A stretch of 64,000 nt of DNA from an uncultured bacterium (lineage in GTDB: Bacteria; Zixibacteria; MSB-5A5; UBA10806), in NCBI GenBank assembly GCA_965541585.1, contig CBEUCH010000013.1, positions 32,001-96,000 on the forward strand, read 5' to 3'. The notes below the pieces were generated by a model. That model ran no database searches. It saw only the letters and a program-made list of their open reading frames with translations, and was not told the origin of the DNA. Below, in pieces: positions 11,384 through 63,526 of the stretch; within the stretch, counting starts at the first letter, position 1; every line of letters begins with the position of its first letter. The translations under genes and the position numbers were made by a program.

Positions 11384-11411
11384 TTGACAGGTTTGCGAGT
11401 GTAGGTATATT
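11384..11411 (+). promoter_or_regulatory. Putative sigma70-type promoter of the cohesin-dockerin cluster
   Basis: TTGACA-16 bp-TATATT with an upstream T/A tract. Confidence 0.5.
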
Positions 11412-11737: not shown

Positions 11738-12484
11738 ATGTTAAAAGTCTTAGTTATCGCTGTTGTGTCTACATTAGTGATGTTTTTCGGAATTTCCGCC
11801 GCTCAGAGTGATCCGGTCAGCATCACCATCGGTGAATCTTGCGATTCAATCCCCAGGCTGAGTATCCCTATTTACATGAACAATCCGGATTCCGTGGGAT
11901 CATTTACGATAAGGATAATCCTTAGTGACTTTAATCTGCCTGATCCGATGTGGCTGGTTTTCGATCCTGACGATCCCGATGCCGCCGATACGATAGGCAG
12001 CCGGATCAACTACTGGCCTTTCTTCACCTTCTATATGGATGAGCCGGATACGATTGTAGTGAACGCTGCCCGAATCGGCTATCCTGAAGAGGCTCAATCC
12101 CTGCCAGCGGGCAATGGTTTGATATTCACTATTCATCCTATCATAACGGAAATATCTAATACCTGCCAGCGTCTGCGGTTTGGCGATGGTTGCTTCGTTT
12201 ACGACGAGAGTCAATATAATTATTATAATCTGAACTATATCAGGGGAGATGCCTGTTCCGGTTGCGATCCGTCCTGGCTACATGGCGACGTGGATCGCTC
12301 CGGGAGCATAGATTTGTCCGACGTAATCGGCATGATCAGCGCCTATAGAGGCGGCTCCTTTTGTGACTCGTGTGCCTGCACGGGGGACGCTGACGGCAGC
12401 GGCATCCCGTTTGAGTTGGCCGACGTGGTGGCCATCATAGGCCATTACAGGACCGGGGAACCCGTGATGCTACCATGTGAATGA
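11738..12484 (+). CDS. Secreted cohesin-like + dockerin protein, no T9SS-type CTD
   Basis: Signal peptide. IPIYMNNPDSVGSFTIRI...LPAGNGLIFTIH cohesin-like sandwich. Duplicated EF-hand-like dockerin GDVDRSGSIDLSD...GDADGSGIPFELAD. Confidence 0.75.
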   Translation: MLKVLVIAVVSTLVMFFGISAAQSDPVSITIGESCDSIPRLSIPIYMNNPDSVGSFTIRIILSDFNLPDPMWLVFDPDDPDAADTIGSRINYWPFFTFYMDEPDTIVVNAARIGYPEEAQSLPAGNGLIFTIHPIITEISNTCQRLRFGDGCFVYDESQYNYYNLNYIRGDACSGCDPSWLHGDVDRSGSIDLSDVIGMISAYRGGSFCDSCACTGDADGSGIPFELADVVAIIGHYRTGEPVMLPCE

Positions 12485-12537
12485 AAAGGGATTAAATAGA
12501 AAAAGTTTGTTCTTCAGATAAACCTGGTTTCCTTGTG

Positions 12538-12547
12538 AAGGAGGTGA
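12538..12547 (+). promoter_or_regulatory. Orphan perfect Shine-Dalgarno element in the 5' UTR (STAB-SD-like)
   Basis: AAGGAGGTGA about 130 nt upstream of ATG 12676, which has its own AAGGAG RBS. Confidence 0.4.
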
Positions 12548-12675
12548 GTGCCAAGAGAGAAAAAAACGTTTGTAAAGAGGGGAGAATTCGGTTTGTCCTG
12601 GAAATGGATTTCCAGGCTTACGCAAACAAGGTGTTAACAAGAAAAACGCCTGTGCATGATTTTAAGGAGTAAAAC

Positions 12676-14943
12676 ATGAAAAAATTGTTGCTCTTGGCTT
12701 TAGTTACAATTTTCACTTTCAGCCTAGCATCTGCTCAGACCAATAAGGCCGTATTCGGGCCGCTGGTCGGTGATGGCGCTGGTCAGATTATTGCCGTCAA
12801 CGGTCAGTCCATCGATCTCGAGGTGTGGGTTCGCACCGATCCGGGCAACCCTGCCGTGATCGTCGGCACGGCTCATGGCCTGATGACCGAGGATCAGTAT
12901 ATCGCGGAACGTAACGACGGCACCGCGGAGCCTGAATGGGCCATGCCCAATTGGGAGCAGTTCTTCATTGATCCCCCGAATCCCCCGTCCCCCCCAGGAC
13001 ATCCTCTTGGCTATTATACGGATGCCGATGGGGGCGATTTCCCGTATGACCCAGGCTTTAAGGGCGAGGTGCAAGGCGCCCTTTACACGGTGTTTAATCC
13101 GCCGGTTGGCGATCCCCTCGACACTCAGGGTGAATGGGTGAAATATATGACCTGGCATGTGGTCATGAACGTCGACATCGAAGTCGAGCAGGAGGTCTGT
13201 CCGTTCAGCGCGGCCTGGTATCCTCACAGTGGTGAGGGGACCAAATGGGCATTTGAAGGTGGCGGCGGCGTTACTCCGGAGCAGGATTATTCCTGCGTCT
13301 GGATCAGTGCCAACACCGACCCGGTGCTTACGGTTTGCCCGCAAGGCGGGTGCGCTGATGGCGGCATGGAGCTCTGTTTCGATATCGCCGGTGAGGACCT
13401 CGACGAGCTTGATGATCTGCAGATCACGTTGATCTCGGGCCCCGGCGAATATACCGCTGATGTTTCAGGTCCCGGTGGCGCAGCTTCCGGAACCTGGTGC
13501 TGGGATGATCCTCAAGCCGGTGAATACGTGGTTGTTCTCGAGTTGAACGACAATGCCGGCGCCGCCGTTCTCTGCGAATTCCCGCTTTCGGTCGGCGATA
13601 TCACTTTTGAGATTGACTGCGTAGCCAGTTTCCCCGGCGGCGTGGTTATCGTTCCGGTTCGCCTGCACACCTGTGCCTTCGAGACCGGTGGTATCGAGTT
13701 TCTGGGTCGCTGGGATCCGACAGCTCTCGAGCTTTTGGACGTTCAGCCGCAATCCAGGATCGATTTCGGTGAGGAATACTTCTACTGGAATGATACCGAT
13801 CCCTGCGAAGAGTGCCCTCCAGGCGGCGCCGTCAGGGTGACATGGATCTCCGATATCAACAACGGAGTTCCGCATGCTCCGGCCCCGCCGGGCAGCGCTT
13901 CGGTATTCAACCTAATCTTCCAGGTCGATCCCGCCCTGCCATGGGGTATGGAAATCCCAGTCGAGTTCCATAATCTGCATTATTCCGACAACACCATCTC
14001 TGATCAGTCGGGTTACATCTGGTGGACTCCTGAGCAGATCGATGGCTGCGTTGTGGTTGAAGACGCCGAATCGTTCAAAGGCGATCCCAACATGAACGGT
14101 ACCCCCTACGAAATCGGTGATGCAGTGATCGTAGCTCTTCGTCTGATCCATTGCAGCAGTGGCATTGACTGCCCTATCTGGTCGGAAGGCCCAGGCGGGC
14201 CAGGCGACGATGCCCTGCAGGAAGCTGCGGCTGACCTGAATAACAACGGGTTCGCCGATATTGCTGACCTGCTTAGGTTCATCAATATTATCAACGATAT
14301 CATTCCTCCCCCGAAAGTGGAGCCGAGCTCTACTGTAGCTCAGGTCAGCATGCCTGATGTTATCGGTGATAATATGGAAGTAACGCTTAAGGCCGGTGTC
14401 GATGTTGGCGGCGTTCTGCTGAGCATCGAGCACCCGGGTGTTGAACTCGACACTCCTGTTGCCAACAACGGCATGGAGCTTCTCTATCATGACGCCGATG
14501 GTGTTATGAATGTGGTAGTCTTCTCCAAGACCGCCGAAGTTCTGGCAGCCGGCAACTCGTCGTTGTTCACCATTCCGGTGCTGTCGAACGATGGCGGCTC
14601 CATGAGCTTTGCCGAGGTTTCCTCTTCCGACTCTTATGGTCGTCTGATGGAGACTGTGGCTTCTCTGGAGGCTCCTCTGCCGACTACCTTTGCCGTCGAG
14701 CAAAACTACCCGAATCCGTTCAACGCCAAGACCCAGATCGGCATAGCTCTGCCTGAGGCCAGTGATGTTGTTGTAGATATCTACAGCATCACCGGTCAGA
14801 TGGTGGAGTCGGTCTCCGGTTATTTCGAGGCTGGAAACCATTCCATCACATGGGATGCTTCCGACGTCTCTTCCGGCGTTTACTTCTACAAAATAACGGC
14901 GGGTGACTTTAGCCAAACGATGAAGATGACCTTGCTGAAGTAA
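12676..14943 (+). CDS. Secreted scaffoldin-like protein: N-domain, Ig, cohesin, dockerin, cohesin-like, T9SS-type CTD
   Basis: Signal peptide. FPGGVVIVPVRL...GGIEFLGRWDPTALELLDV cohesin. GDPNMNGTPYEIGD...ADLNNNGFADIADL dockerin. QNYPNPFN...SSGVYFYKI...KMTLLK CTD. Confidence 0.85.
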   Translation: MKKLLLLALVTIFTFSLASAQTNKAVFGPLVGDGAGQIIAVNGQSIDLEVWVRTDPGNPAVIVGTAHGLMTEDQYIAERNDGTAEPEWAMPNWEQFFIDPPNPPSPPGHPLGYYTDADGGDFPYDPGFKGEVQGALYTVFNPPVGDPLDTQGEWVKYMTWHVVMNVDIEVEQEVCPFSAAWYPHSGEGTKWAFEGGGGVTPEQDYSCVWISANTDPVLTVCPQGGCADGGMELCFDIAGEDLDELDDLQITLISGPGEYTADVSGPGGAASGTWCWDDPQAGEYVVVLELNDNAGAAVLCEFPLSVGDITFEIDCVASFPGGVVIVPVRLHTCAFETGGIEFLGRWDPTALELLDVQPQSRIDFGEEYFYWNDTDPCEECPPGGAVRVTWISDINNGVPHAPAPPGSASVFNLIFQVDPALPWGMEIPVEFHNLHYSDNTISDQSGYIWWTPEQIDGCVVVEDAESFKGDPNMNGTPYEIGDAVIVALRLIHCSSGIDCPIWSEGPGGPGDDALQEAAADLNNNGFADIADLLRFINIINDIIPPPKVEPSSTVAQVSMPDVIGDNMEVTLKAGVDVGGVLLSIEHPGVELDTPVANNGMELLYHDADGVMNVVVFSKTAEVLAAGNSSLFTIPVLSNDGGSMSFAEVSSSDSYGRLMETVASLEAPLPTTFAVEQNYPNPFNAKTQIGIALPEASDVVVDIYSITGQMVESVSGYFEAGNHSITWDASDVSSGVYFYKITAGDFSQTMKMTLLK

Positions 14944-14970
14944 GAAGTTCGGCAAGTCGCTTCGAGCTAA

Positions 14971-15003
14971 CAGGATAAGAGAGGGTCTCCCTCTCTTATC
15001 CTG
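14971..15003 (+). other. Perfect 15-bp intergenic stem-loop without a U-tract
   Basis: CAGGATAAGAGAGGG-TCT-CCCTCTCTTATCCTG, followed by AATAAAA rather than a T-run. Confidence 0.8.
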
Positions 15004-15315
15004 AATAAAATGAACATCTTACGAGAGGGAGGGGGTGATTTGAAATAGGCGTGTGCAAATAATTTGTTTTTTGTTGCAGGAGTGGTAATTTGTTTTGGGT
15101 TTTTCTTGTATTTTCGATGTTTTTTACTGGTTCGATTATTTTATCCCACAAAAGAAGAAATATCTATGAACTTGAAGAGAAGCTATTTAGCGTGTGGAAT
15201 AATGTTAACCTGATGATGGTGAAAAAGTTATGACATCAGAGGCACGTATTTTGCTAAGTTATACTATAAAAGGAAGCGAGATTTACGCTTAAACCGATTA
15301 TCTCGGGGGATTAAC

Positions 15316-16158
15316 GTGAGATCTTTTGTCTTGATTGCAGTTCTGAGTTTATTTCTGGGAGCGACAAATGCATTTCCCCAGTCTCCGGACAGTCTGATCG
15401 TAACGAATGCTGTGGCGCCTCCCGGGGATACCGCAATCGTCTCGGTCATGTTGCATAATACTCAGTTTTCGGTCGGCGGTTTTGCGATGAGATTCGTCTT
15501 GCTCGATTCTGTGAATGCCTCGTTTCAACGGGTCGAGCGTGGGGCCGACACGCAGGATTTCGATCATTTCAATATCCAGCAGTCTGATGGGACATGCAAG
15601 GTCGTGGGGATCGTTGATATGCCAGGCGGCAATAATGCTCCGCCTCTACCAATCGGAATTAATGAACTTGCTAAGGTGTTTATATTTATCGAGGATACCG
15701 CCCCGTGGGGCATGACGGATTCGATACTGTTTATGGATGACACGCTTCCCCCGGAACGTGATAATTCCATTTCTGACAGCACCGGTTATATAAACGAAGT
15801 ACCGACGTTGATCGGCGGAGAGATTCTTGTTGACGTCGCCATCGGCGTCAGTGAGATTCCCACCGGCATTCCAGATAAGATGGAGTTATATCAAAACTAC
15901 CCCAACCCTTTCAATTCTGAGACAATGATTCGGTTCGGACTGTCGGCGGAAATAGATGAGGTTTCTCTTTCTGTCTATGACATTGTTGGCCGGAGGGTAG
16001 GCAGGTATTACTGGGGCGGCCTTCCGCCGGGTCAGCACGAGGTAATATGGAGCGGCTATGACGATAATGACAGACCTCTTGCGTCCGGCGTGTATTTTTA
16101 CAGGCTGGAGGCCGGGTCGTTGCCGGCTATTGTGAAGAGGATGACCCTGCTGAAATAG
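15316..16158 (+). CDS. Secreted single-cohesin + T9SS-type CTD protein
   Basis: Signal peptide. PGDTAIVSVMLHN...VGGFAMRF cohesin. QNYPNPFN...LASGVYFYRL...KRMTLLK. Confidence 0.85.
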   Translation: MRSFVLIAVLSLFLGATNAFPQSPDSLIVTNAVAPPGDTAIVSVMLHNTQFSVGGFAMRFVLLDSVNASFQRVERGADTQDFDHFNIQQSDGTCKVVGIVDMPGGNNAPPLPIGINELAKVFIFIEDTAPWGMTDSILFMDDTLPPERDNSISDSTGYINEVPTLIGGEILVDVAIGVSEIPTGIPDKMELYQNYPNPFNSETMIRFGLSAEIDEVSLSVYDIVGRRVGRYYWGGLPPGQHEVIWSGYDDNDRPLASGVYFYRLEAGSLPAIVKRMTLLK

Positions 16159-16260
16159 GCAGATGGTATGAATTGTCTTATGCTTTTGGTACCCAATACT
16201 GGAAATGGAGACCGTCAATCCGGACGGTCGTATGACCGTAATGGTCATGGAGAAAATGAT

Positions 16261-17091
16261 TTGAGCAAAACGCTATCCTTTGTATTTATTTTTGTGATGT
16301 TGATTTGCTCCGGTTCTGTATGGGGGCAGACATTCTCCGATGACGATACATTGAGTATTCCATCGGGAATCGGTGAGCCGGGTGATGTGATTCTGGTGCC
16401 GATAGATCTGGTAAATACGTTTATGGTTGGAGGCTTTGCCGTCAGGATCTCTTACGATAGCAGCGCTTTTGAACCCACTACAGTAGACACCACAGAGCGG
16501 TCGGCCAGCCTTGAATTACACGGCGCAGATTTTCAAGTCCCCGGGATCATCCGATATTGGGCAACCTCCATGCGGCCTCTTGAGAACGGGATGCCGGCAG
16601 GATCGGGCCCCGTAGCGGTGCTATCCCTGGCGATCAAGTATACTGCGCAGGACGGCTATTATGACCTTGCTTATACCGATGAAGATTCAACGTCGTATGA
16701 TAACCAATTATCTGATTCCCTTGGACTTACACTGGTCATCCCGATTCAGGTCGGAGGCCGGATCGTAGTCGGAGATCCAACCGGAATTGAGGATGACAAA
16801 CCGCTTCCGGAATCTTTTGCGTTGTCGCAAAATTTTCCCAATCCGTTCAATCAGCAGACGCGAATCTCCTTCAATCTGGCGAGTTCAGGCGAAGTCGGAC
16901 TTGAGATATTCGATATTCTCGGAAGAAAAATAGCGACTTTATTCTCAGGTCGGGCTGATGAAGGAGAAACCGAAGTTAGCTGGGACGGGCGGTCTGCGTG
17001 GGGAGGGGATGTGTCTTCGGGCGTTTATTATTATCGATTGCGGAACGCGGGGGGGGAATCGATAGTCAGGAAAATGACCTTGTTAAAGTAG
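16261..17091 (+). CDS. Secreted single-cohesin + T9SS-type CTD protein
   Basis: Start moved to TTG 16261 (GGAG upstream, signal peptide follows). PGDVILVPIDLVN...VGGFAVRISYD cohesin. QNFPNPFN...KMTLLK. Confidence 0.85.
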   Translation: MSKTLSFVFIFVMLICSGSVWGQTFSDDDTLSIPSGIGEPGDVILVPIDLVNTFMVGGFAVRISYDSSAFEPTTVDTTERSASLELHGADFQVPGIIRYWATSMRPLENGMPAGSGPVAVLSLAIKYTAQDGYYDLAYTDEDSTSYDNQLSDSLGLTLVIPIQVGGRIVVGDPTGIEDDKPLPESFALSQNFPNPFNQQTRISFNLASSGEVGLEIFDILGRKIATLFSGRADEGETEVSWDGRSAWGGDVSSGVYYYRLRNAGGESIVRKMTLLK

Positions 17092-17104
17092 TGGGGCCGA
17101 TGAT

Positions 17105-19234
17105 ATGAAAAAGCTAATCTTGCCTCTTGTCATAGCGATCTTTCTGGCAGCATCATGGTCTGATGCAGAGGCGCAGGAATATTCTGATGCCGATACCATG
17201 GCCATAATTGATGGCTATGGCAATCCCGGGGATACGGTCGGCGTCATAATGCACATGGCTAACCATACTATCGACGTTGGGGGGTATCTTCACAGAATCG
17301 TTTACGACGAGACGCTCCTGGAGCCCCTGATGGTCACCGACACCATAATGAGTAGCGAATGTCTGGATAGGGGCTGTCAACTCGGAGCATCAGCCGATGC
17401 TCTTGAGCCGGGCGTCGTCAGGATTCTGGCGTATAGCCAATTTGGCGACTATATTCCAATGGGCAGCGGTCCTGTATTGCAGCTTAATTTTATAGTCAAA
17501 CCGACAGCGCCGCCCGGGACCATTACTATTCTGCAATTCCAGGATCTAATCCCGCCGCAGGATAATAACTGGTCTGATTCACTGGGGGAGCGTCTCCTGG
17601 TGCCTCAGCTGTTACCCGGCAATTTCTCCATTCTGGGGGGAGGCTTAAACTCGCCGCCGGTCATCAACTTCGTCGGCGATCAGGAGGTGGCCGAGGGGCA
17701 GTTGCTGGAGTTTTCCGTGACCGCTCATGATCCGGACTCAGATCCGATTACATTGACCGCCCAGAACCTCCCCGATAATGGTTCGTTCCCCGTAGTCCAG
17801 GGTGATTCGCTGGTTACCGGTACCTTTTCTTTTCGCCCTGATTTCGACCAGGGGCCCGATACGTTTGTTGTAACTTTCAGAGCAACAGACAATTCCAACA
17901 ATGTCACCGAACGTCCGGTTCAGATTGTCGTTCTCGATCAGCCGGATGATTTCTTATCCATCAGCACCGACCAGGGAGGTATTCCGGGGGCGACGGCGAG
18001 GCCGGTGGATATCATCCTGTTCAATTCCATTCCGGTATTTGGCGCCCAGTTCGAGATTCTGTATGATCCTTTTCAGATCCAGATCCCGGAGGTCTATTCG
18101 ACGGAGAGAGCCTATGATATGTGGTTCTCTTACAACGAACCGGATCCCGGGAGAATTATAATCCTGATATTCTCGGTTGGCCTGGATTCGATCTCATCGG
18201 GAGGCGGGCCTCTGGCACAGCTTATCGTCGACGCCGATCCCTTTGCAACCTTCGGCCCGACAGAACTGATCCTTCAAGAGGCCATTGAGGTTATCGACTC
18301 TACTGGAACATCGAAGCCACTCATTACGGAAGATGGATTTTTCACGATCGACCAATTCGGCGATTCCAATCTCGATGGTATTGTCAATGTTGGAGACTGC
18401 ATAACCATAGTAGCGTATCTGATCGGGCGGGGCACCTTGAGCGAAAGGCAGCATGATGCCGCCGACATAGACAGCACCGGCCGAGTGGATATAGGCGATC
18501 TTCAGCAATTGATTAACATCATATTGGAAATAGGTATTCCACCTCTGTCTTATCCGCAGGATTTGCCTGTAATCGTAGAATTGTTGAAGGAAGATATTGG
18601 CCGCCAAGGAGATAAGCTAACCGTTCCGCTCTGGGCCGATATTACAGGCGAGGCCTCGGCCGTGCAGTTCGAACTGACTTTCGATACCGATAAGCTCGGC
18701 GAAATAGAGATCGTCAAGGGCGATATGGTCTCTGATATGACGCTTGATTATACGGTCGCCGGCGGCAGCATTAAAGGACTAGTATACCATCTGGGTGGTA
18801 ACAACTTCGGACCCGCCACAGGACGGCTTGTAGAATTTAAGTTCGACGCCCTGACCGGCGATTTCGATCCGAGCAGCGATATAAACCTTGCCGATTTCCA
18901 GGTAGTCAACCCGGCCGCCGACTTTATGCCGGTGGAAATTAAAGGACGATTGCCGGAAATTTTCAGGCTCGCTCAAAATTACCCGAATCCATTCAATGCG
19001 GGCACGAACATCAGCTTCAGTTTACCGTTATCCGGATATGTAGAGCTTTCGGTTTACGATCTCCTGGGACGAAGAGTAACAATTCTTCTTGATAGCTTCC
19101 TGCCGGCCGGAAATCATCTTGTGACCTGGAACGGTCGTTCCGGTAATGGAGAATCGATGGCCACGGGCATTTACTTCTATCGCCTGGCGGCCGAGGGATT
19201 TGACGAAACAAAAAAGATGTTGTTGGTGAAGTAG
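17105..19234 (+). CDS. Secreted scaffoldin-like protein: cohesin, cadherin-like Ig, cohesin, dockerin, cohesin, T9SS-type CTD
   Basis: Three cohesin-like segments (PGDTVGV..RIVYDETLL; FGAQFEILYDP; SAVQFELTFD). NSPPVI..EG..DPD Ig repeat. GDSNLDGIVNVGD...ADIDSTGRVDIGDL dockerin. CTD ending KKMLLVK. Confidence 0.85.
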   Translation: MKKLILPLVIAIFLAASWSDAEAQEYSDADTMAIIDGYGNPGDTVGVIMHMANHTIDVGGYLHRIVYDETLLEPLMVTDTIMSSECLDRGCQLGASADALEPGVVRILAYSQFGDYIPMGSGPVLQLNFIVKPTAPPGTITILQFQDLIPPQDNNWSDSLGERLLVPQLLPGNFSILGGGLNSPPVINFVGDQEVAEGQLLEFSVTAHDPDSDPITLTAQNLPDNGSFPVVQGDSLVTGTFSFRPDFDQGPDTFVVTFRATDNSNNVTERPVQIVVLDQPDDFLSISTDQGGIPGATARPVDIILFNSIPVFGAQFEILYDPFQIQIPEVYSTERAYDMWFSYNEPDPGRIIILIFSVGLDSISSGGGPLAQLIVDADPFATFGPTELILQEAIEVIDSTGTSKPLITEDGFFTIDQFGDSNLDGIVNVGDCITIVAYLIGRGTLSERQHDAADIDSTGRVDIGDLQQLINIILEIGIPPLSYPQDLPVIVELLKEDIGRQGDKLTVPLWADITGEASAVQFELTFDTDKLGEIEIVKGDMVSDMTLDYTVAGGSIKGLVYHLGGNNFGPATGRLVEFKFDALTGDFDPSSDINLADFQVVNPAADFMPVEIKGRLPEIFRLAQNYPNPFNAGTNISFSLPLSGYVELSVYDLLGRRVTILLDSFLPAGNHLVTWNGRSGNGESMATGIYFYRLAAEGFDETKKMLLVK

Positions 19235-19462
19235 CGTCAACGGCACTTCCGGGTTGAGGTCTTGCTCTAAATGGGCATAGATGACCCGAAGTGACGGCAT
19301 GAAAGAGGCCGAGATGATTGCTGAATTAAAATATATTCTATCTGATTTTATTCAGATTTCAGAGGGTCAGAGTCTATCATCGTACACCCTCTCCCCGGAT
19401 ATGGATAGAAGATCCTTTTCATTAAATAGCCTACATGGTTTTACTGGCGTCGGGGCTTGCAA

Positions 19463-40400: not shown

Positions 40401-42196
40401 CCGGTATCTTCATCATTTACTTCGCGGCCACGGACGGCGAGTATGTTGACACGAAACCGACTCTGGTTCAGGTTATCGATATGGGCAACCAGCAACCGAC
40501 TCTAAACTCCATCGGCGCACTGTCAGTGCTCGAGGGAGATTCGCTCGAGGTGCTGATATCGGCCACCGATCCGGATTCAACCTTCCCGGCCTTCGCAGTG
40601 GAGGAAGCGCCGTACAATCTGGTGTTGACGGATTCCTCCAACGGTTACGCCACCCTATCGTACGCTCCTTTCTATAATCAATCAGGCGTCTATAGCATGC
40701 TGGTAATCGCTGATGACGGCGATGGAGCTGCCGATTCGGAATATGTCGATCTTACGGTAATCGAAGCCGGCAACCAGTATCCCGAACTGGAGCCTATTTC
40801 AGATGCGACGGTTACTGAAGGGGATAATCTGCAATTCTCAGTTTTTGCCGTTGATCCTGATTCCACGCTTCCAATAATGGATGCTCATAACCTCCCCGGG
40901 AATTCCGGTTTCACGGATATGGGTGACGGAAGCGGGCAGTTCTCATTCGATCCCAGTTTCTTCCAGGCGGGAGATTATCAGGTGACATTCCTTGCAATCG
41001 ATGCGGAGGATGCCGCAATCGCCGACTCCCAGATCGTCACTATCACGGTTGTCGACGACAACAGGCGCCCCGATTTTGAACATATGGGACCGTTCACGAT
41101 TTCGGAGGGTCAGAATCTCAATATAACAGTGGTTTGTACAGATCCCGATAGCACCATCCCAGTTCTGGAAATCCTATTGTCTCCGCCTAATTCCTCCTTT
41201 ATCGATAACGGTGACGGCACGGGCATCTTCGATTTCAACCCGGATTATTTCCAGGCGGGCGTTGATTCCGCCCTTTTCAGGGCGGTTGATGAAACCGATC
41301 CGGAATTGTCAGATGAAATGATGATCTATTTCATAATTGAAGATGTTAACCGTCCTCCAGTGCTCTCGCCGATTCCGGATACAAGCATCGGCGATGGATT
41401 CGTGCTCAATCTGGATATTGTTACGACCGATCCCGATTTAACCATTCCTCTGCTTTTCTTCAGGAATATTCCGAATTTAGCGGAGTTTACAGACTATGGT
41501 GATGGAACTGCATTGTTCTCGTGGCGCCCGAGATTCGAAGATATTGGTCTCTATCTGGTCACCTTCGGATGCTTTGATCAAATAGATCCATCCCTGGCCG
41601 ATTCGCAGGTGGTGGCCATTCAAGTGGTTACGTCCGGCAACCATCCGCCGGTGTTTGTACCGATCCCCGATCAACAGGTAAACGCCGACGATACTCTTGA
41701 TCTGCGCATTGTAGCCACAGATCCGGAGAATGATCCCCTTACGCTGGACTATGTCGGGACCCTGCCGTTCGGAATGACGTTTGTAGATTCGGGGGGCGGG
41801 ATAGGATCGATTCACTGGGTGCCAACCATGGATCAGGGGGGCGATACAACCGTTACGCTCGTGGCCACAGAGAGTTTTGGCCTGACTGACACGCTTCGAG
41901 TGAATATAGCCGTCTTGACCTTTATAAGGGGTGATATCGATGGCAATGGTGTAATCGAGCTACCGGATATCATAATGATTGTAGATTATTATAGGTATGG
42001 GGTGGAGATCCCGGAGCCTATTGAGCGAGCCGATGTCGACGGCAACGGAACCATAGGGGATCTTGCAGATGTCATCTATCTTATCGACTATTATAGAGGA
42101 GGCCCTCCGCCACCTCCACCGTCGCCTCCGGGTGGAGGACGGATAGGTATAATTCCGAGGAATATTATGAATTTTGAAGCAGGGAGGGGGAGATAG
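19463..42196 (+). CDS. Giant (about 7577 aa) secreted adhesin-like protein: small N-terminal beta-sandwich, 78 tandem cadherin-like Ig repeats, C-terminal dockerin
   Basis: Single open frame of 22.7 kb. Signal peptide (..SARA/Q). About 93-94-aa repeats (D/N)xPPVLDPIxPQxxxEG...SDPDGD...FDPDYTQSG...DITV, 78 counted by hand. GDIDGNGVIELPD...ADVDGNGTIGDLAD dockerin. No CTD. Start ATG 19463 or TTG 19457. Confidence 0.9.
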   Translation: MIPKQPRKAIGYLPLALFALIFLFPLSARAQLAESLYVDSSSSSRPISSEINSHGATDGAEASISGNLAAPQDTWTFDFDDTINPGQVIINAQIFITHRQSGYIDDSLVIEYFDGNNFIQFESFANVPTSLTTIGPFNADSITSTDQLNGFQVQMRGIQKARGHDVITYYVDAVELRLTYQANEPPVVDPIPPQIIAEGAHLDVRLTASDPDIGDILTLTAENLPPNASFSDSSGGVGGLIFDPDFTQAGFYQVSIIATDQGGLADTGTVDITVTNVDLPPVLDPISPQIMAEGAHLDLTITASDPDGDVIGLVAELLPPNSAFFDSTGGIGGFTFDPDYTQSGPHQVRFIASSNSLADTQLVDITVTDVDRPPVLDPISPQIMAEGDHLDLRVTASDPDGDVISLLAELLPPNSAFFDSTGGVGGFTFDPDYTQSGPHQIRFIASSNSLADTHLVDITVTNVDRPPVLDPISPQIMAEGDHLDLRVTASDPDGDLIGLVAELLPPNSAFFDSTGGVGGFTFDPDYTQSGPHQVRFIASSNSLADTQLVDITVTDVDRPPVLDPISPQTMAEGDHLDLRVTASDPDGDPISLVAELLPPNSAFFDSTGGVGGFTFDPDYTQSGPHQVRFIANSNSLADTQLVDITVTNVDLPPVLDPISPQTMAEGDHLDLTITASDPDGDVIGLVGELLPPNSAFFDSTGGVGGFTFDPDYTQSGPHQVRFIANSNSLADTQLVDITVTNVDLPPALDPISPQTVFEGAHLDLRVTASDADGDVISLVAELLPANSAFFDSTGGIGGFTFDPDYDQAGPYQVRFIASSTALADTQLVDITVINVGLPPVIDPVSAQSVDEAGHLDVRVTASDPDLGDVITLTAEQLPANASFADSSGGVGGLVFDPDFTQAGFYQVRIIATDTGALADTEMVDITVNQINAPPVLEPIGPRFVDEGSHLEFVLISSDVDGDSIILTAENLPANSAFADSGNGHGLFQFDPDFNQSAIYPVRFIASDGILADSEIVDITVNDVDRSPILDPISPQIMAEGGHLDLRVTASDPDGDPIGLIAELLPPNSAFFDSTGGVGGFTFDPDYTQSGPHQVRFIANSNALADTQLVDITVTNVDLPPVLDPISPQTMGEGGHLDLRVTASDPDGDPIGLIAELLPANSAFFDSTGGVGGFTFDPDYTQSGPHQVRFIANSNSLADTQLVDITVTNVDLPPVLDPISPQIMAEGGHLDLRVTASDPDGDPIGLIAELLPPNSAFFDSTGGVGGLIFDPDYTQSGPHQVRFIANSNSLADTQLVDITVTNVDLPPVLDPISPQIMAEGDHLDLRITTSDPDGDPIGLIAELLPPNSAFFDSTGGVGGFTFDPDYTQSGPHQVRFIANSNSLADTQLVDITVTNVDLPPVLDPISPQIMAEGDHLDLRVTASDPDGDPIGLIAELLPPNSAFFDSTGGVGGFTFDPDYTQSGPHQVRFIANSNALADTQLVDITVTNVDLPPVLDPISPQIMAEGGHLDLRVTASDPDGDPIGLIAELLPANSAFFDSTGGVGGFTFDPDYSQSGPHQVRFIANSNSLADTQLVDITVTNVDLPPVLDPISPQIMAEGDHLDLRITASDPDGDPVGLIAELLPPNSAFFDSTGGVGGFTFDPDYTQSGPHQVRFIANSNSLADTQLVDITVTNVDLPPVLDPISPQILAEGDHLDLRITASDPDGDPIGIIAELLPANSAFFDSTGGVGGFTFDPDYTQSGPHQVRFIANSNTLADTQLVDITVTNVDLPPVLDPISPQIIAEGGHLDLRVTASDPDGDPVGLMAELLPANSAFFDSTGGVGGLTFDPDYTQSGPHQVRFIANSNTLADTQLVDITVTNVDLPPVLDPISPQIMAEGDHLDLRITASDPDGDPIGLIAELLPANSAFFDSTGGVGGFTFDPDYTQSGPHQVRFIANSNSLADTQLVDITVTDVDLPPVFDPIPSQSVDENSHLDIRVTASDFDGDPIILTAEGLPANASFADSSNGVGGFTFDPDFFQSGDYTVTFIANSNALADTEFVDITVNNVNRAPLLNPIGNRSVIEGGNISFEITASDPDLVTPSLTAQDLPINASFVDSLDGTGQFTFNPGYTQAGLYDVLFIASDGDLADSEMVQITVFDAGNQPPEIDYIGPQLVYEGYHLELLVTASDPDSTIPALQGLNLPANSAFADSGNGNASFTFDPDYTQSGVYNVLFRAYDGGLYDSLWVGITVLDSNRTPILDPIGSQTVTEGNRLQFVITSSDPDGTTPQLSTGALPFNAVFEDSLNGNGLFTFDPDFTQSGIDTILFVAADGLLADSEFVEITILEFGNNPPVLDPIGPQSVDEGSQLQVIISASDLDGTIPSLAAEGLPANAAFTDSLNGRGLFEFSPSYFQSGPYQVRFIASDGVASDTELVDITVNDIDRLPVLDPISPQILAEGDHLDLRVTASDPDGDPINLLAELLPANSAFFDSTGGVGGFTFDPDYTQSGPHQVRFIANSNALADTQLVDITVTNVDLPPVLDPISAQIVAEGDHLDLRITASDPDGDPIGLVAELLPPNSAFFDSTGGVGGFTFDPDYTQSGPHQVRFIASSTTFADTQLVDITVTDVDLPPVLDPISAQVIAEGNHLDLRITASDPDGDPIGLVAELLPPNSAFFDSTGGVGGFTFDPDYTQSGPHQVRFIANSNALADTQLVDITVTNVDLPPVLDPISPQTMAEGDHLDLRITASDPDGDPIGLIAELLPPNSVFFDSTGGVGGFTFDPDYTQSGPHQVRFIANSNSLADTQLVDITVTNVDLPPVLDPISPQTMAEGDHLDLRITASDPDGDPIGIIAELLPPNSAFFDSTGGVGGFTFDPDYTQSGPHQVRFIANSNSLADTQVVDITVTEVDRPPVLDPISPQTMAEGDHLDLRITASDPDGDLIGLVAELLPVNSAFFDSTGGVGGLTFDPDYTQSGPHQVRFIASSNSLADTQLVDITVTNVDLPPVLDPISPQTVAEGGHLDLRITASDPDGDPIGLVAELLPVNSAFFDSTGGVGGFTFDPDYTQSGPHQVRFIATSNSLADTQLVDITVTELDRSPVLDPISPQTMAEGDHLDLRITASDPDGDPVGLVAELLPANSAFFDSTGGVGGFTFDPDYTQSGPYQVRFIANSNSLADTQLVDITVTELDRPPVIDPISPQTMAEGDHLDLRITAADPDGDAISLVAELLPVNSAFFDSTGGVGGFTFDPDYTQSGPYQIRFIANSNSLADTQLVDITVTNVDLPSVLDPISPQTMAEGDHLDLRITASDPDGDPIGLVAELLPANSAFFDSTGGVGGFTFDPDYTQSGPHQVRFIANSNSLADTQLVDITVTELDRQPVLDPISPQTMAEGDHLDLRITASDPDGDPVGLVAELLPPNSAFFDSTGGVGGFTFDPDYTQSGPYQVRFIANSNSLADTQLVDITVTNVDLPPLLDPISPQTVSEGGHLDLRITASDPDGDPVGLVAELLPPNSAFFDSTGGVGGFTFDPDYTQSGPYQVRFIANSNSLSDTQLVDITVLEAGDQPPIWDPISPQTVAEGDHLDLQVTATDPEGDIISLTAELLPANSAFVDSTGGVGGFTFDPDYFQADLYQVRFIATANAQSDTALVDITVTDTPRPPIWDPIGDRALFEGESISFIVTATDPDLTIPLLSVDSLPANAVFTDSLNGNGLFSFSPDYTQAGQHILTFIASDGVLSDSEVVNIFVFEAGNQPPEIDSVAPQSVVEAQHLEFVVTSSDPEGTIPALQAFDLPANAAFADSGNGHGLFTFDPDYTQSGVHNVLFQAFDGELYDSLYVEITVVDFPFAPVLDPIGAQIVTEGDTLQVVITSSDPDGTDPQLLTGPLPVNATFEDSLNGHGLFVFTPDFTQAGIDTVLFIATDGALSDSEYVQITVVEFGNNPPVLDPISSQTVDEGSLLQVLVSASDPDSTIPLLSTIILPVNATFTDSLNGTGLLEFTPDYFQSGVYFVTFIASDGALADSQNVMITVNNINRAPVLDTIPTPQVVAEGSLLQLTVTSSDPDTTIPVLTAENLPPNATFADSGDGSGDFQFNPDYTQSGSYQVLFISSDGDLADSQYVDIDVIETDRPPVLDPILPQTVAEGDHLDLRITASDPDGDLVGLVAELLPANSAFFDSTGGVGGFVFDPDYTQSGPYQVRFIANSNSLADTQLVDITVTELDRPPVLDPILPQTVDEGDHLDLRITASDPDGDVISLAAELLPANSAFFDSTGGVGGFVFDPDYTQSGPYQIRFIASSNSLADTQLVDITVNDVNLPPILDPIPTPQSVAEGSILEFTVTSFDPDGTNPALVALNVPVNAVFTDSLNGHGLFEFAPDFTQSGDYQVLFVASDGVLADSQYVDITVTENNRPPVLDPILTPRNVAETATLEFSITASDLDGNIPALFAEDLPVNAVFVDSANGVGTFTFTPDYTQSGPYAVLFYATDGQFSDSQYVDITVTDVNASPVITVPGAQVVNESDSLLFTVSASDIDGTVPLLSFFDVPANSSFEDSLNGVGLFRFYPDFTQSGIYTVGFIASDGLLSDTGYVSITVLDAGNQSPVLDPIGPQTVDEGDTLRFVVSATDPDSTVPQLLTDPLPTNATFEDSLNGHGLFVFAPDFTQSGVDTVLFIATDGGLSDSEYVEITIVEAGNQVPVLDPIGPQAVGEGDSLLLVITASDPDGATPTLVALGVPSNGSFVDNGDGTGDFDFYPDYFQENIFTVTFIASDGVLADTEAVEITVADTPRPPIWDPISDRALFEGQTISFGVFASDPDLTIPLLSVDSLPANAAFTDSLNGHGSFSFSPDYTQAGQHILTFIASDGVLSDSEVVNIFVFEAGNQPPEIDSVAPQSVVEAQHLEFVVTSSDPEGTIPALQAFDLPANAAFADSGNGHGLFTFDPDYTQSGVHNVLFQAFDGELYDSLYVEITVVDFPFAPVLDPIGAQIVTEGDTLQFVVTSSDPDGTDPQLLTGPLPANAAFEDSLNSHGLFVFAPDFTQAGIDTVLFIATDGALSDSEYVQITVVEFGNNPPVLDPISSQTVDEGSLLQVLVTASDPDSTIPLLSTITLPVNAIFTDSLNGAGLLEFAPDYFQSGVYFVTFIASDGALADSQNVMITVNNINRAPVLDSIPTPQAVAEGSLLQVTITSSDPDTTIPILTAENLPLNATFADSGDGSGDFQFNPDYIQSGPYQVLFISSDGDLADSQYVDIDVIETDRPPALDPILPQTVAEGDHLDLRITASDPDGDLIGLVAELLPANSAFFDSTGGVGGFVFDPDYTQSGPYQIRFIASSNSLSDTQLVDITVTELDRPPVLDPILPQTVDEGDHLDLRLTASDPDGDVISLVAELLPANSAFFDSSGGVGGFVFDPDYTQSGPYQVRFIASSNSLADTQLVDITVNDVNLPPVLDPIPPQTVAEGSHLDLRITASDPDGDPIALLAELLPPNSAFFDSTGGVGGFVFDPDYTQSGPYQVRLIASANSLADTQLVDITVTEVDRPPVLDPVLPQIVAEGDHLEFRLTASDPDGDVITLVGELLPPNSAFFDSTGGVAGFVFDPDYTQSGPYQIRFIANSNSLADTQLVDITVTELDRQPVLDPISPQTMAEGDHLDLRITASDPDGDPVGLVAELLPPNSAFFDSTGGVGGFTFDPDYTQSGPYQVRFIANSNSLADTQLVDITVTNVDLPPLLDPISPQTVSEGGHLDLRITASDPDGDPVGLVAELLPPNSAFFDSTGGVGGFTFDPDFTQSGPYQVRFIANSTSLSDTQLVDITVIEAGDQPPVWDPISPQTFAEGDHLDLQVTATDPEGDIISLTAELLPANSAFFDSTGGVGGFTFDPDYFQADLYQVRFIATANAQSDTALVDITVTDTPRPPIWDPIGDRALFEGESISFIVTATDPDLTIPLLSVDSLPANAVFTDSLNGNGLFSFSPDYTQAGQHILTFIASDGVLSDSEVVNIFVFEAGNQPPEIDSIAPQSMVEGEHLEFVVISSDPDSTIPALQAFDLPANAVFADSGNGHGLFTFDPDFTQAGVHNVLFRAFDGELYDSLYAEITVVDFGFPPELDPIGPQTVTEGDTLQVVITSSDPDGTYPQLLTGPLPANAAFEDSLNGHGLFVFTPDFTQSGIDTVLFMATDGALSDSEYVEITIIEAGNQPPTLNPIGPQVVDEGDTLLVIISASDPDSTIPGLSVVGLPPNATFNDNFDGTGTFEFRPDYTQGGLDTVLFIATDTALADSEYVEITIYDINLPPILTPIGPHFTDEGVLLQVMVTATDPDGTIPSLTADSLPLNATFVDSSNGAGLFEFMPDFDQAGVYNVLFAASDGILADSELVVITVVDVNRPPLFDPVGDQQVTEGDSLFFTVQAVDPEGLIPSLSVDLLPTNAVFTDSGNGTGLYEYRPDYTQSGVDTVAFLASDGVLIDTLKVQITTIEAGNQWPVLSPIGPRVVDESQLLQFNVYGSDADDGPPSLQVGSLPLGSTFYDSTNGVGTFTFTPDFFQSGIYIVLFFATDGSAADSEYVLITVNNINQPPQLTPIGNQAIFEGDSLGLNIIASDLDGDSLVITAELIEVNMTFTDNGDGTAFFQFMPDFTQAGIYPLTFAVTDGVDADTDLVQIEVIEVGNQPPVLAAIDTAYYITEGYLLVIPVSATDLDADSLVLSADSLVENMTFDDYGDGSGSFTFAPSYLQSGTYPLTFSAFDGQAYDSLQTIIYVAEEGNQPPVLDPIGPQTVAEGDSLVLDISASDPEGFIPILLVSDQPDSSYFTDNGDGTGRFRYYPDFYSAGVDTVRFTAMDDGGLTDYEDVLITITDVNLPPFIVFDGDTLVHEGDTLVAIVIATDSSDFEPGPISLSHGYLPPNSDFVITGNGVGEFRFYPDFEQTGIDSAYFYAVDSDIPPMSDEKWVNLTVLASNRPPELVQPPGGSVDQGDTLTIDLFATDPDGDSIVLFINCDCPEPLPPRSEFQDFGDGTGQFTFYPDYTQTGIFIIYFAATDGEYVDTKPTLVQVIDMGNQQPTLNSIGALSVLEGDSLEVLISATDPDSTFPAFAVEEAPYNLVLTDSSNGYATLSYAPFYNQSGVYSMLVIADDGDGAADSEYVDLTVIEAGNQYPELEPISDATVTEGDNLQFSVFAVDPDSTLPIMDAHNLPGNSGFTDMGDGSGQFSFDPSFFQAGDYQVTFLAIDAEDAAIADSQIVTITVVDDNRRPDFEHMGPFTISEGQNLNITVVCTDPDSTIPVLEILLSPPNSSFIDNGDGTGIFDFNPDYFQAGVDSALFRAVDETDPELSDEMMIYFIIEDVNRPPVLSPIPDTSIGDGFVLNLDIVTTDPDLTIPLLFFRNIPNLAEFTDYGDGTALFSWRPRFEDIGLYLVTFGCFDQIDPSLADSQVVAIQVVTSGNHPPVFVPIPDQQVNADDTLDLRIVATDPENDPLTLDYVGTLPFGMTFVDSGGGIGSIHWVPTMDQGGDTTVTLVATESFGLTDTLRVNIAVLTFIRGDIDGNGVIELPDIIMIVDYYRYGVEIPEPIERADVDGNGTIGDLADVIYLIDYYRGGPPPPPPSPPGGGRIGIIPRNIMNFEAGRGR
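20006..41915 (+). repeat. Intragenic tandem array of about 279-282 bp units with higher-order block duplications
   Basis: Near-identical DNA blocks recur at offsets 3369 bp (e.g. 30601 vs 33970) and 6729 bp (29474 vs 36203). Confidence 0.9.
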
Positions 42197-42199
42197 GCA

Positions 42200-43678
42200 A
42201 TGCGTAAAACGTGGGCATCGCTGTTCATATTTCTATTTTTCGCAAGTGCGGTCTCTCGGGCGACCGGCTCATCGTATTCGCCTACCGTACCGACTGATAC
42301 TTACGAGATTAGTTTTGGCCCACTTATCGAGGCCTTTCCAGGAGAGCCTGATCTCCTGATTCCCGTACGGATTTCAGTCAGCCAGCCGACGATCGGAGTA
42401 AATATAGTCATCTCCTATGACCAGAGTCTTTTCACCCTCGGCGCAGTGGCCCCTAATATGTTCTTCCAGAGATTCATAGTGGATCTCAGCATTCCCGGAC
42501 GGATATATATAAATCTTCTAACAGATTTACCGCCTCCTCCTCAGATCCCACCGCTCGAAGGCGATACTATTATTGCCTGGATCGTATGCGCTGTGACCTC
42601 GGAGGATCTGGGGTATGATCTCCTCACCCATATAACTTTTTACGAGGACCCGGATACTCCCTATCCCGATAACTCTCTCCTTCTGGAGGACGGTACCTGG
42701 ATTATTCCGCCGAATCTATCTCTGATCCGGGGCGACATTCTCATCATTCACCCCATATACGGCGATATCAATCTTAATGAATTCGCTTTCGAAATCGGTG
42801 ACGCCGTAACTTTTCTGAATTATTTTATGGGCTTGACCGAATTCAACCGACGGCAATATGCCAACTCCGATTGCAATCGCGATGGTATACAGGCGAGCAT
42901 TGCCGACCTGGTTTACCTTCTCGCCGTCGTAAGCGGGGATACCAATCTTGTCGCTCCTCCGCTTCTTATCGCGGAAAATCATGCTCTTAAAAGTGGTTCT
43001 GATTCCGAAAACCATTTCAGGAAAATGGCTGGCGACTATAACAGATTAGATATGGTTATCCAGGGGACCGAGCCTATCGGCGGGGCGTATTTTGTTCTCG
43101 AATATGATGCCGATAGTGTGGAGCCTGTGGCTGTCCTTTTGGATACCTCGGCGGCTCCGCTGCAATTATCATGCGCGGCTTCAGAGGGGAGATTGTTGAT
43201 CGCCGTTTATGATTGGGATTCACAGGACTCGTATTTTTCGGCGGGCAGATTACTCTCCGTCATATATTCAAGGTCTGGTTCTGGAGCCCCGTTGTTCGAT
43301 ATCACCAAAGCGGAGTTTTCAAACAGGATGGGACAAGCCATTGATATAGACTACAATGTCGTCTATTCCGGCTTAAAACCACCCACAACAGAGCCTATCG
43401 AACCGCGCATTTCAGTTTCATGTTACCCCAATCCGTTTAACGGAGCGGTCTCGGTCAGCTACAGTCTCCCTTCGGACGGGGAGTATGATCTGATAGTATA
43501 CGATATACTGGGGAGAAAAGTGAGGGTTCTGGAACGAGGCTTTCTACCCGCCGGGCCGCGCAGGGTTTTCTGGGACGGCAAAGACGAGAGCAGTCGTGGT
43601 GTTGCCAGCGGGATATATTTCGTCCGGCTCTACGGTGAGGGCGCCAGCGCCAGCACCAAAGTTTTTATGTTGAAATAG
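42200..43678 (+). CDS. Secreted cohesin + dockerin + cohesin-like + T9SS-type CTD protein
   Basis: Starts 3 bp after the giant gene. AFPGEPDLLIPVRI...ISYD cohesin. GDINLNEFAFEIGD...SDCNRDGIQASIADL dockerin. YPNPFN...VASGIYFVRL...KVFMLK. Confidence 0.85.
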   Translation: MRKTWASLFIFLFFASAVSRATGSSYSPTVPTDTYEISFGPLIEAFPGEPDLLIPVRISVSQPTIGVNIVISYDQSLFTLGAVAPNMFFQRFIVDLSIPGRIYINLLTDLPPPPQIPPLEGDTIIAWIVCAVTSEDLGYDLLTHITFYEDPDTPYPDNSLLLEDGTWIIPPNLSLIRGDILIIHPIYGDINLNEFAFEIGDAVTFLNYFMGLTEFNRRQYANSDCNRDGIQASIADLVYLLAVVSGDTNLVAPPLLIAENHALKSGSDSENHFRKMAGDYNRLDMVIQGTEPIGGAYFVLEYDADSVEPVAVLLDTSAAPLQLSCAASEGRLLIAVYDWDSQDSYFSAGRLLSVIYSRSGSGAPLFDITKAEFSNRMGQAIDIDYNVVYSGLKPPTTEPIEPRISVSCYPNPFNGAVSVSYSLPSDGEYDLIVYDILGRKVRVLERGFLPAGPRRVFWDGKDESSRGVASGIYFVRLYGEGASASTKVFMLK

Positions 43679-46113: not shown

Positions 46114-46142
46114 TTGACAAACTTTGTGACTGGGCTTATATT
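46114..46142 (+). promoter_or_regulatory. Putative sigma70-type promoter of the 1406-aa gene
   Basis: TTGACA-17 bp-TATATT with an upstream A-tract. Confidence 0.55.
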
Positions 46143-50677: not shown

Positions 50678-50741
50678 GTAATCCGTTGACATACTGAGTT
50701 AGTCTCGACTTGAGGCTACAGTCCTACTGATCTGTAGGACG

Positions 50742-50776
50742 AGAATCGGGGTCTTCAAAGACCCCGATTCTTTTTT
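50742..50776 (+). terminator. Rho-independent terminator
   Basis: AGAATCGGGGTCT-TCAA-AGACCCCGATTCT-TTTTT, preceded by two small hairpins at 50701-50740. Confidence 0.85.
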
Positions 50777-63228: not shown

Positions 63229-63526
63229 AAGATGTCCTTTCATAGTCTTTATTTTGATTCAACAAGCTTGCATCGAATTTAGTCGTCTTTCAGAAGATCT
63301 AACGCCTTTTCCCGCAGAAACCGGGGAGGCTGACTTTGGTGCGCAGAAGGATAAACCGTCCATATACAGTAATAAAACCGATTAGCAGCGTCAGTTGTTT
63401 CCGCTAATTTTCAGATTGCGTATGAACCCGCCTGTCAGGGTAGGATTGGCCCTGCGATGCGTAAATTATGTATGCTGGTTGTGCAAAATATAGGGTGGTC
63501 TATATAAAATAGTGACTCAGGTAATC

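Follow-up and report, generated by a model that had tools for sequence, protein, structure and literature searches.

A cluster of seven genes, named g1 to g7 here, lies at positions 11738–43678 of the window, a 64,000-nt stretch of contig CBEUCH010000013.1 from an uncultured bacterium of the Zixibacteria; all coordinates below are positions in the window, whose first letter is position 1. The cluster is conserved across the phylum. Its products are built from cohesins, dockerins, immunoglobulin-like (Ig) domains and type IX secretion system (T9SS) C-terminal domains (CTDs), and it is probably (at roughly 60%) the anchoring hub of a cellulosome-style, non-cellulolytic surface display system. 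Through a lock-and-key code that is not the same in each genome, the seven genes likely hold a stalk of 7,579 residues, along with some fifty further plug-bearing proteins, on the cell surface.

The cluster and its conservation

The genes of the cluster are as follows.

11738–12484, + strand: g1, 248 aa; divergent cohesin (11807–12268) and terminal dockerin (12275–12469), without a CTD; in 12 of 13 distant genomes, the locus starts with it
12676–14943, + strand: g2, 755 aa; hypervariable cohesin X (12736–13311), Ig, cohesin, internal dockerin, cohesin, CTD
15316–16158, + strand: g3, 280 aa; cohesin and CTD, a minimal anchor
16168–17091, + strand: g4, 307 aa; cohesin and CTD, a minimal anchor
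17105–19234, + strand: g5, 709 aa; cohesin, Ig, cohesin, internal dockerin, cohesin, CTD
19457–42196, + strand: g6, 7,579 aa; exchangeable tip of 155 aa (19547–20011), 78 acidic Ig-like repeats (20012–41929) and terminal dockerin (41921–42115), without a CTD
42200–43678, + strand: g7, 492 aa; cohesin, internal dockerin, cohesin, CTD; found in the two closest families only

A preliminary description of this DNA, made from the letters alone, had reported seven co-oriented genes with signal peptides and no recognizable catalytic domain. All seven open reading frames are indeed on the + strand at the expected coordinates, and all seven proteins have a hydrophobic N-terminal stretch, none of them with a lipobox. 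Likely start codons are TTG at 16261 for g4 and ATG at 19463 for g6. The modules of g1–g7 add up to 11 cohesins, five dockerins and five CTDs, and scans with Pfam and NCBIfam gave no catalytic family for any of the seven.

Pfam detects little of this scaffold, with Cohesin above the cut-off in g4 and g5 only and Dockerin in g5 only, and the modules were therefore tested directly by profiles and folds. Four position-defined classes, drawn from this genome and the loci of 19 relatives, cover ten sandwich domains and are connected by profile-to-profile links of 93–99.8%, while reversed-X, Ig and CTD controls reach at most 1.9%. A model of g5 residues 281–616 from 62 sequences has a mean predicted local distance difference test (pLDDT) of 93.9 and a predicted template modeling score (pTM) of 0.83. 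In a fold search, its middle cohesin matches the type I cohesin 6kge_A (Z 20.4, root-mean-square deviation (rmsd) 1.4, 132 residues) and its internal dockerin the type I dockerin 2ccl_B (Z 12.8, rmsd 0.9, 62 residues). The last cohesin of g5 has no separate fold-search match and takes its identity from the profile link and the strand pattern. The dockerins have duplicated calcium-loop/helix repeats, and the profile of the terminal ones matches 18 PDB sequences, each of which carries a dockerin according to its name or its entry.

The five dockerins of the earlier account are thus confirmed, by Pfam in g5, by these PDB matches for the terminal ones and by the 2ccl_B match, and its sandwiches are cohesins. 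Its count of about ten has to be raised by one. The N-terminal domain of g2, which it had set apart as "X", has a cohesin fold as well: the model is confident (pLDDT 90.5) and matches 4uyp_A (Z 14.9, rmsd 2.5, 142 residues), and the first 20 of 50 rows of the fold search are cohesins. Profile comparison gives no link between X and the other cohesins (0.9% with this genome's copies, 17% with the position classes), and the fold search alone connects them. In distant families, the g2 N-terminal domains are named X by position, with 0.9% to this genome's X and a weak 74.5% to the g3/g4/g5 class.

Five of the seven proteins end in a CTD, as first described: TIGR04183 is above its cut-off in g2, g4, g5 and g7, and in g3 FlgD_ig passes while Por_Secre_tail is missed by 1 bit. 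The combination of a hydrophobic N-terminus with a TIGR04183/PF18962 CTD, typical of type A T9SS substrates, is accordingly found in the first four, with g3 that one bit below the Pfam cut-off. A search for SprA/PorV-like export genes had been proposed, and the genome, which is 98% complete, encodes the T9SS core: SprA (723.7 bits, cut-off 200), PorU (687, cut-off 420) and a PorV-family protein (240.5, cut-off 90) that passes the family model and fails the PorV equivalog. The GldM model TIGR03517 has no match here, yet it has none in 14 controls either. On another contig (C11:27512–34170, L097), PorU adjoins a protein of 863 aa that resembles the PorV family in a stretch at each end and has a weak match to PorZ in between; it is possibly a fused attachment complex. 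Judged by the accessible part of one source (PMC10994853), the likeness to type A substrates of Bacteroidota extends to a conserved lysine at the end of the CTD and to the SprA, PorU and PorV-family genes; the difference is that the present host is outside the Bacteroidota.

The named homologues of g5 are Zixibacteria. With its CTD left off, g5 finds a match in 122 of 141 genomes of the phylum, and the g2 cassette does so in 105. Gene order, which it had been proposed to compare, is kept in relatives. Among 32 relatives' loci, retrieved around g5 matches and hence selected for g5, an Ig-repeat gene lies directly 3' of g5 in 31; the contig of the remaining one ends within g5. All of g1–g7 occur in the same order in three genomes (G004, G014 and G017). 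In more distant families, a g5-like paralogue replaces g3–g4, or nothing stands there, and g7 is missing. Most relatives also share two genes downstream, a large dockerin protein and a GH35-like gene, which in the window are:

46457–50677, + strand: g8, 1,406 aa, secreted; terminal dockerin (50342–50569); beyond the coordinates of the preliminary description
50957–53125, + strand: GH35/GH42-like gene, a conserved downstream landmark

No Pfam family matches g8, which is flanked by a promoter-like site of its own (46114–46142) and a terminator-like hairpin (50741–50772). The GH35/GH42-like gene is probably outside the system since it is also found in genomes without the locus.

In two families, loss of the locus goes along with loss of dockerins. 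Four genomes from these families lack the locus and have 0, 0, 0 and 1 dockerin matches, yet they retain SprA; 18 others have 22–151. In 17 further genomes without a g5 match, the profile returns mostly Ig matches, and some of these assemblies are fragmented.

Several other genes lie close to the cluster. A gene for a matrixin (M10) peptidase with fn3 and IPTL-CTERM (43743–45704, − strand) is found between g7 and g8, with no counterpart among the relatives' loci searched. Upstream, at 5331–10524, are genes for a GAF-PAS histidine kinase and a Ser/Thr kinase-TPR protein, present in the two closest families and possible regulators. A ThsB-like TIR domain gene (53889–54773, − strand) has a membrane protein gene on one side and a gene for ribonucleotide reductase on the other. 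Directly upstream of the window (C13:29852–31513), the genome has a g2 paralogue that ends right after the internal dockerin; in the same location, relatives have a full-length copy or a pair.

Terminal dockerins, cohesin X and the putative cargo

The internal and terminal dockerins have diverged in different ways. For the internal dockerins of g2, g5 and g7, whole-domain identity is 0.47 between orthologues against 0.29 between g2 and g5 within a genome. For the terminal dockerins of g1, g6 and g8, identity at positions 9–11 of each repeat, which we take to be the numbering of the recognition positions, is 0.62 among paralogues within a genome (46 pairs) against 0.20 among orthologues (627 pairs). 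Within one terminal dockerin, the signatures of repeats 1 and 2 are 0.73 identical (61 signatures). In a set of 94 terminal dockerins, the nearest neighbor comes from the same genome in 44 of 86 testable cases, where 4.7% would be expected. The paralogy of g1, g6 and g8 is old and their bodies are unrelated, so the pattern calls for shared selection, most simply by one receptor. Judging from these sequence patterns, terminal dockerins likely carry a genome-specific recognition code. Species-specific recognition by symmetric dockerin residues, with dual binding, has been described (PMC12484212, as far as its text was available).

The best candidate for the receptor is cohesin X. It is the fastest-changing cohesin, with an identity of 0.22–0.25 to its family orthologues, whereas the other cohesins mostly have 0.35–0.63. 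Across 23 genomes, X tracks the signature of the g1 dockerin (partial r 0.48, Mantel p 0.001), and the other six cohesins range from −0.10 to 0.22. Relatives also encode small X-like proteins; when 52 of them were compared with g2 N-termini, the best match was the g2 of their own genome in 15 of the 17 that scored at least 30 bits. On this covariation, X likely binds terminal dockerins, and g2 becomes the candidate main anchor and receptor.

A number of observations weigh against this picture. With the dockerins of g6 and g8 as the target, X reaches 0.25 and 0.20, against 0.35 and 0.19 for the last cohesin of g2. The g1 dockerin and X are about 270 bp apart in the DNA, a linkage that can mimic co-evolution, and the kin genomes in the test are not independent of each other. 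The strands of the presumed binding face vary among the 27 X copies of this genome, which would also fit a variable ligand-binding domain. In one large family, the g6 dockerin has a signature of its own, which suggests a dedicated socket among g3–g5. The co-loss covers two families, perhaps one or two events. Dockerin matches number 37 in G152, a genome on a single contig, and 26 in G125, yet g1–g6 were not found in either, so the cluster is not indispensable. These two retain g8-like genes and small X-like-CTD genes, whose N-terminal domain resembles the first domain of their own family's g2, and the minimal system may therefore be X-CTD plus cargo. Finally, the model of g5 suggests an internal dockerin clasped by the cohesins on either side of it in the same chain, but this cis clasp is a reading of a single score, the pTM of 0.83.

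Some of the same facts would suit a purely structural role, in which the cohesin–dockerin tandems would be spacers stiffened by calcium, the ligands of the cohesin folds would be other molecules, and the giant protein would be an adhesin that is released or attached loosely. By prediction, the internal dockerin is occupied in its own chain, the faces of X vary among paralogues, and the cohesin-like folds also match pilin domains at Z 8–10. This account is nevertheless improbable: it leaves unexplained why unrelated proteins of one genome have common recognition residues on both repeats, and why dockerins are lost along with the locus.

A census with profiles built from the modules of the cluster gives 55 dockerin proteins in this genome, 49 of them without a CTD, together with 187 CTD proteins and 35 cohesin proteins with 49 cohesin domains, 27 of which are X (26 besides that of g2). 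The idea that CTD-less dockerin proteins are plug-in cargo holds up in that they look like cargo, but most of the cargo is encoded outside the cluster, with 49 such proteins genome-wide. Among 30 dockerin proteins scanned, 18 match a Pfam family at 1e-5; the families include one C25 and two M28 peptidases, FG-GAP, LVIVD, Vps10 and SBBP propellers, beta-helices and cupredoxin. A peptidase-centered complex would be possible within the proposed display system. The window itself encodes a cupredoxin-domain protein with a terminal dockerin (62080–63243, − strand), a redox protein among the cargo.

What the census lacks is the equipment of a true cellulosome or other polysaccharide-degrading multienzyme complex. 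The cohesin and dockerin folds are type I-like and there is the GH35-like gene downstream, but that gene carries no dockerin and is also found where the locus is absent, GH5, GH9 and CBM3 find no match anywhere in this nearly complete genome (controls were positive), and there was no glycoside hydrolase among the 30 dockerin proteins scanned. Nor is there a primary scaffoldin with CBM3 and tandem cohesins, the longest tandem being three cohesins in an X-X-X-dockerin protein. Such a complex is very improbable here.

X itself is spread over the genome. A 16-gene array on another contig (C16:42389–59295, L083) is a second, recently expanded socket cluster, in which eight X-dockerin genes, seven X-CTD genes and one full g2 paralogue are interleaved. 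Dockerin and CTD are thus alternative C-termini, because the same X ends in either, in alternating genes. The genome has 12 proteins in which X is combined with a terminal dockerin, three of them with two or three copies of X, and among the best 150 of 302 matches to the X profile this combination is the commonest form, often behind a peptidase or propeller head.

These proteins raise the possibility of a lattice or filament that extends itself, in which X-dockerin subunits polymerize head to tail, starting at the CTD anchors, to give a branched coat or chains with enzymes and the giant stalk as caps. Such a structure would supplement the display system rather than replace it, and it is put forward only tentatively. 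It would require X to bind its own dockerin class in trans; X could instead stabilize the neighboring dockerin, as does the X-module of type II dockerins, and no obvious gene for length control was seen. The preliminary description had also imagined a branched lattice, made by the proteins of the cluster that carry both cohesin and dockerin. Their internal dockerins are predicted to be packed against their own flanking cohesins and are not obviously free to form one.

A somewhat more doubtful proposal is that the terminal dockerin is an export tag, and that cargo binds a cohesin-CTD carrier (g3, g4 or X-CTD) in the periplasm and is drawn with it through SprA. The exchange of dockerin and CTD on the same X would suit such hitch-hiking, as would the hydrophobic N-terminus found in 45 of the 49 CTD-less dockerin proteins, none of which has a lipobox, and the lack of any match to GspK of the type II secretion system in the genome. 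A type II-like route is possible, however: three secretin operons resemble type IV pilus systems, and one of them has the best, though below-cut-off, matches to GspD, GspF and GspG. A non-covalently bound passenger of 7,579 aa would be a hard case, and no precedent was found in the available part of a T9SS review.

The giant stalk and the probable control of its genes

The stalk protein g6 has exactly 78 Ig-like repeats (residues 186–7491, mean length 94 aa, mean pairwise identity 0.56) followed by the dockerin, as first described. The repeats are almost free of lysine, contain 15% acidic residues and form internally duplicated blocks. Within the gene there are three exact DNA repeats of 377–488 nt, and because of these the repeat count may be off by an assembly error. 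If each repeat is 4–5 nm long, as we assume, the stalk would measure about 0.3–0.4 micrometers. It most likely serves adhesion. It is not built like an RTX/type I adhesin, having a hydrophobic N-terminus, a dockerin end and no RTX family among its Pfam matches.

Intact stalks of relatives have 15 to 61 repeats (two copies broken by runs of N were excluded), and their tips are different or missing. The tip of this locus is met again in a distant family (G031), and genomes that are closer have no tip at all, which indicates that tips are exchanged. It has no profile link to cohesins. Six longer homologues were found, one from Acidobacteriota and five that are named Zixibacteria or unnamed partial proteins; its Atlas look-alikes are phage clusters at 0.94, of low recognition value and a lead only.

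Other versions of the giant occur in relatives. An alternative tip of short beta repeats is found in L047–L048, L050–L051, L108–L109 and L120–L121. In several families (L109–L110, L126, L129, L132 and L115), the giant is split in two genes: the first encodes an Ig stalk that closes with another type of C-terminal domain, which is conserved and repeats the motif F.AGFG.NF, and the second a conserved N-terminal domain, Ig repeats and the dockerin. The facing ends of the two proteins may bind each other. In another genome (G051, contig C16), these Ig repeats make up an open frame of 8,656 aa with a dockerin at its end.

The preliminary description had pictured one conserved, co-transcribed cluster. 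The conservation stands, but a conserved sigma-54-like promoter before g3 suggests two transcription units rather than one operon. The elements concerned are:

11384–11411, + strand: sigma-70-like promoter TTGACA-16-TATATT for g1–g2; 11 of 12 consensus positions match; aligned in 9 of 10 genomes
12522–12545, + strand: leader motif with strong Shine-Dalgarno-like sequence, AAGGAGGTGA, in the g1–g2 gap; kept in 9 of 9 aligned genomes
14973–15001, + strand: perfect 13-bp hairpin after g2; kept in 10 of 10 genomes in the alignment, G017 having changes on both arms
15241–15255, + strand: sigma-54-like −24/−12 promoter (GG-N10-GC), GGCACGTATTTTGCT, for g3–g7; the sole + strand match within 10500–53200

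The sigma-70-like site lies 330 bp upstream of g1. The pattern used for the −24/−12 site is what we take to be the sigma-54 consensus. Between g2 and the next gene, it is found in 24 of 29 genomes, with 3.1 expected from shuffled sequences, and its strict form in 15 of 29, with 0.4 expected; in the g1–g2 gaps it is found in 3 of 28, with 1.5 expected. RpoN is encoded in the genome, and a palindrome at 15054–15078 (TGCAAA...TTGCA) may be an activator site. The conservation of this sequence pattern before g3 means that g1–g2 and g3–g7 are likely separate units and the stalk is likely inducible.

The hairpin after g2 is a candidate terminator or transcript stabilizer; a simple terminator scan missed it and found no excess of sites. 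The leader between g1 and g2 (12522–12640) comprises the motif ACCTG.TTTCC..GAAGG.GGTGA, a purine run and a short hairpin. It has no Rfam match, nor does the rest of 10500–53400, and it is possibly a cis-regulatory RNA or ribosome-stall stabilizer.

Proposed assembly at the cell surface and relation to known systems

From these elements we infer the following assembly. By analogy with Bacteroidota type A CTDs (PMC10994853, in the part available), g2, g3, g4, g5 and g7 would be exported via SprA and PorV, lose their CTDs and be fixed to the surface by PorU. The tail of cohesin, internal dockerin and cohesin would fold into a single rigid base, leaving the N-terminal cohesins to face outwards as sockets. 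The X of g2 and its 26 paralogous domains would likely bind terminal dockerins, and recognition residues drifting together in each genome would yield the genome-specific code. The small g1 protein likely works as an adaptor, and g3–g7 would be a second unit, under sigma-54 control, that contributes the giant stalk together with anchors of its own. The earlier notion that the CTD proteins are anchoring or adaptor scaffoldins fits the cohesin and dockerin folds, the T9SS export core and the conservation, but the internal dockerins, the additional cargo and the two units change the picture.

Taken together with the lattice and hitch-hiking proposals, a broader and tentative view would be that the Zixibacteria have an outer coat of cohesin–dockerin parts. 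T9SS-anchored sockets would seed self-extending X-dockerin chains, and the terminal dockerin would be a second tag for surface display, possibly with hitch-hiking export, for tens to more than 100 proteins per genome. Through the drift of the code in each genome, cells would retain the secreted proteins that are their own, and the sigma-54 switch would add a stalk of several hundred nanometers with a swappable tip.

The locus resembles the anchoring and adaptor layer of clostridial and ruminococcal cellulosomes (Clostridium thermocellum CipA with OlpA, OlpB and SdbA; the sca clusters of A. cellulolyticus and R. flavefaciens) and fails as a cellulosome on cellulases and the CBM3 scaffoldin. Common to both are type I-like cohesin and dockerin folds, clustered scaffold genes with scattered cargo genes, single-cohesin anchors and adaptor-like proteins, as well as two-fold symmetric dockerins with genome-specific residues (PMC12484212, available part). 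The Zixibacteria differ in being Gram-negative, in using a T9SS CTD as the anchor instead of a surface-layer homology (SLH) or sortase motif, and in lacking cellulases and any CBM3-bearing primary scaffoldin with several cohesins. Further points of difference are the giant Ig stalk among the cargo, the cohesin-flanked internal dockerin and the sigma-54-like promoter.

Long acidic stalks of Ig/cadherin-like repeats, with variable length and an exchangeable tip, are presumably also found in Marinomonas MpIBP and Salmonella SiiE. However, MpIBP and SiiE are type I secretion substrates, and g6 instead has a signal peptide and a terminal dockerin.

Two systems described in silico come closer. "Ca. 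Stygibacter" (Cloacimonadota) has a cellulosome-like complex with a 3,755-aa scaffoldin, tandem cohesins, CBM2/3 and GH18 and GH57 cargo (PMC8542988, in its available part). That source also reports a cohesin protein whose C-terminal domain is linked to T9SS by citation, and dockerin-bearing S8 and C25 peptidases as cargo; the Zixibacteria differ from it by the conserved multi-gene locus, the giant stalk, the genome-specific dockerin code and the lack of CBM3. The initial statement that no characterized system has this organization is true for experiment, but CTD-bearing scaffoldins had been published in silico for Cloacimonadota (same source). The hypothetical "Planctosome" of Nemodlikiaceae (Planctomycetes) is likewise a non-cellulolytic assembly of anchor, adaptor and peptidase via cohesin and dockerin, with a proposed lamin-tail domain as the anchor in place of T9SS and no giant stalk in the available part of the source (PMC6461901). 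In a paper on Latescibacteria (PMC4454575), the terms cohesin, dockerin and scaffoldin are absent, and PMC11205867 contains nothing of relevance. Supplements and most subscription papers aside, no description of the locus or of dockerins in Zixibacteria was found in the literature.

To our knowledge, experimental evidence for cohesin–dockerin assembly comes almost entirely from Gram-positive bacteria that degrade cellulose, and the role of most non-cellulosomal cohesins and dockerins is an open question in the field. Here, the pair is probably the conserved core of the cell surface over nearly a whole Gram-negative phylum, coupled to type IX secretion. The locus pinpoints the relevant parts, cohesin X against terminal dockerins, both within and between genomes. 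If the code is true, it would offer orthogonal binding pairs in a large set made by nature, a display route for proteins that have no CTD of their own, and an example of lock-and-key drift that spans dozens of genes unrelated to one another.

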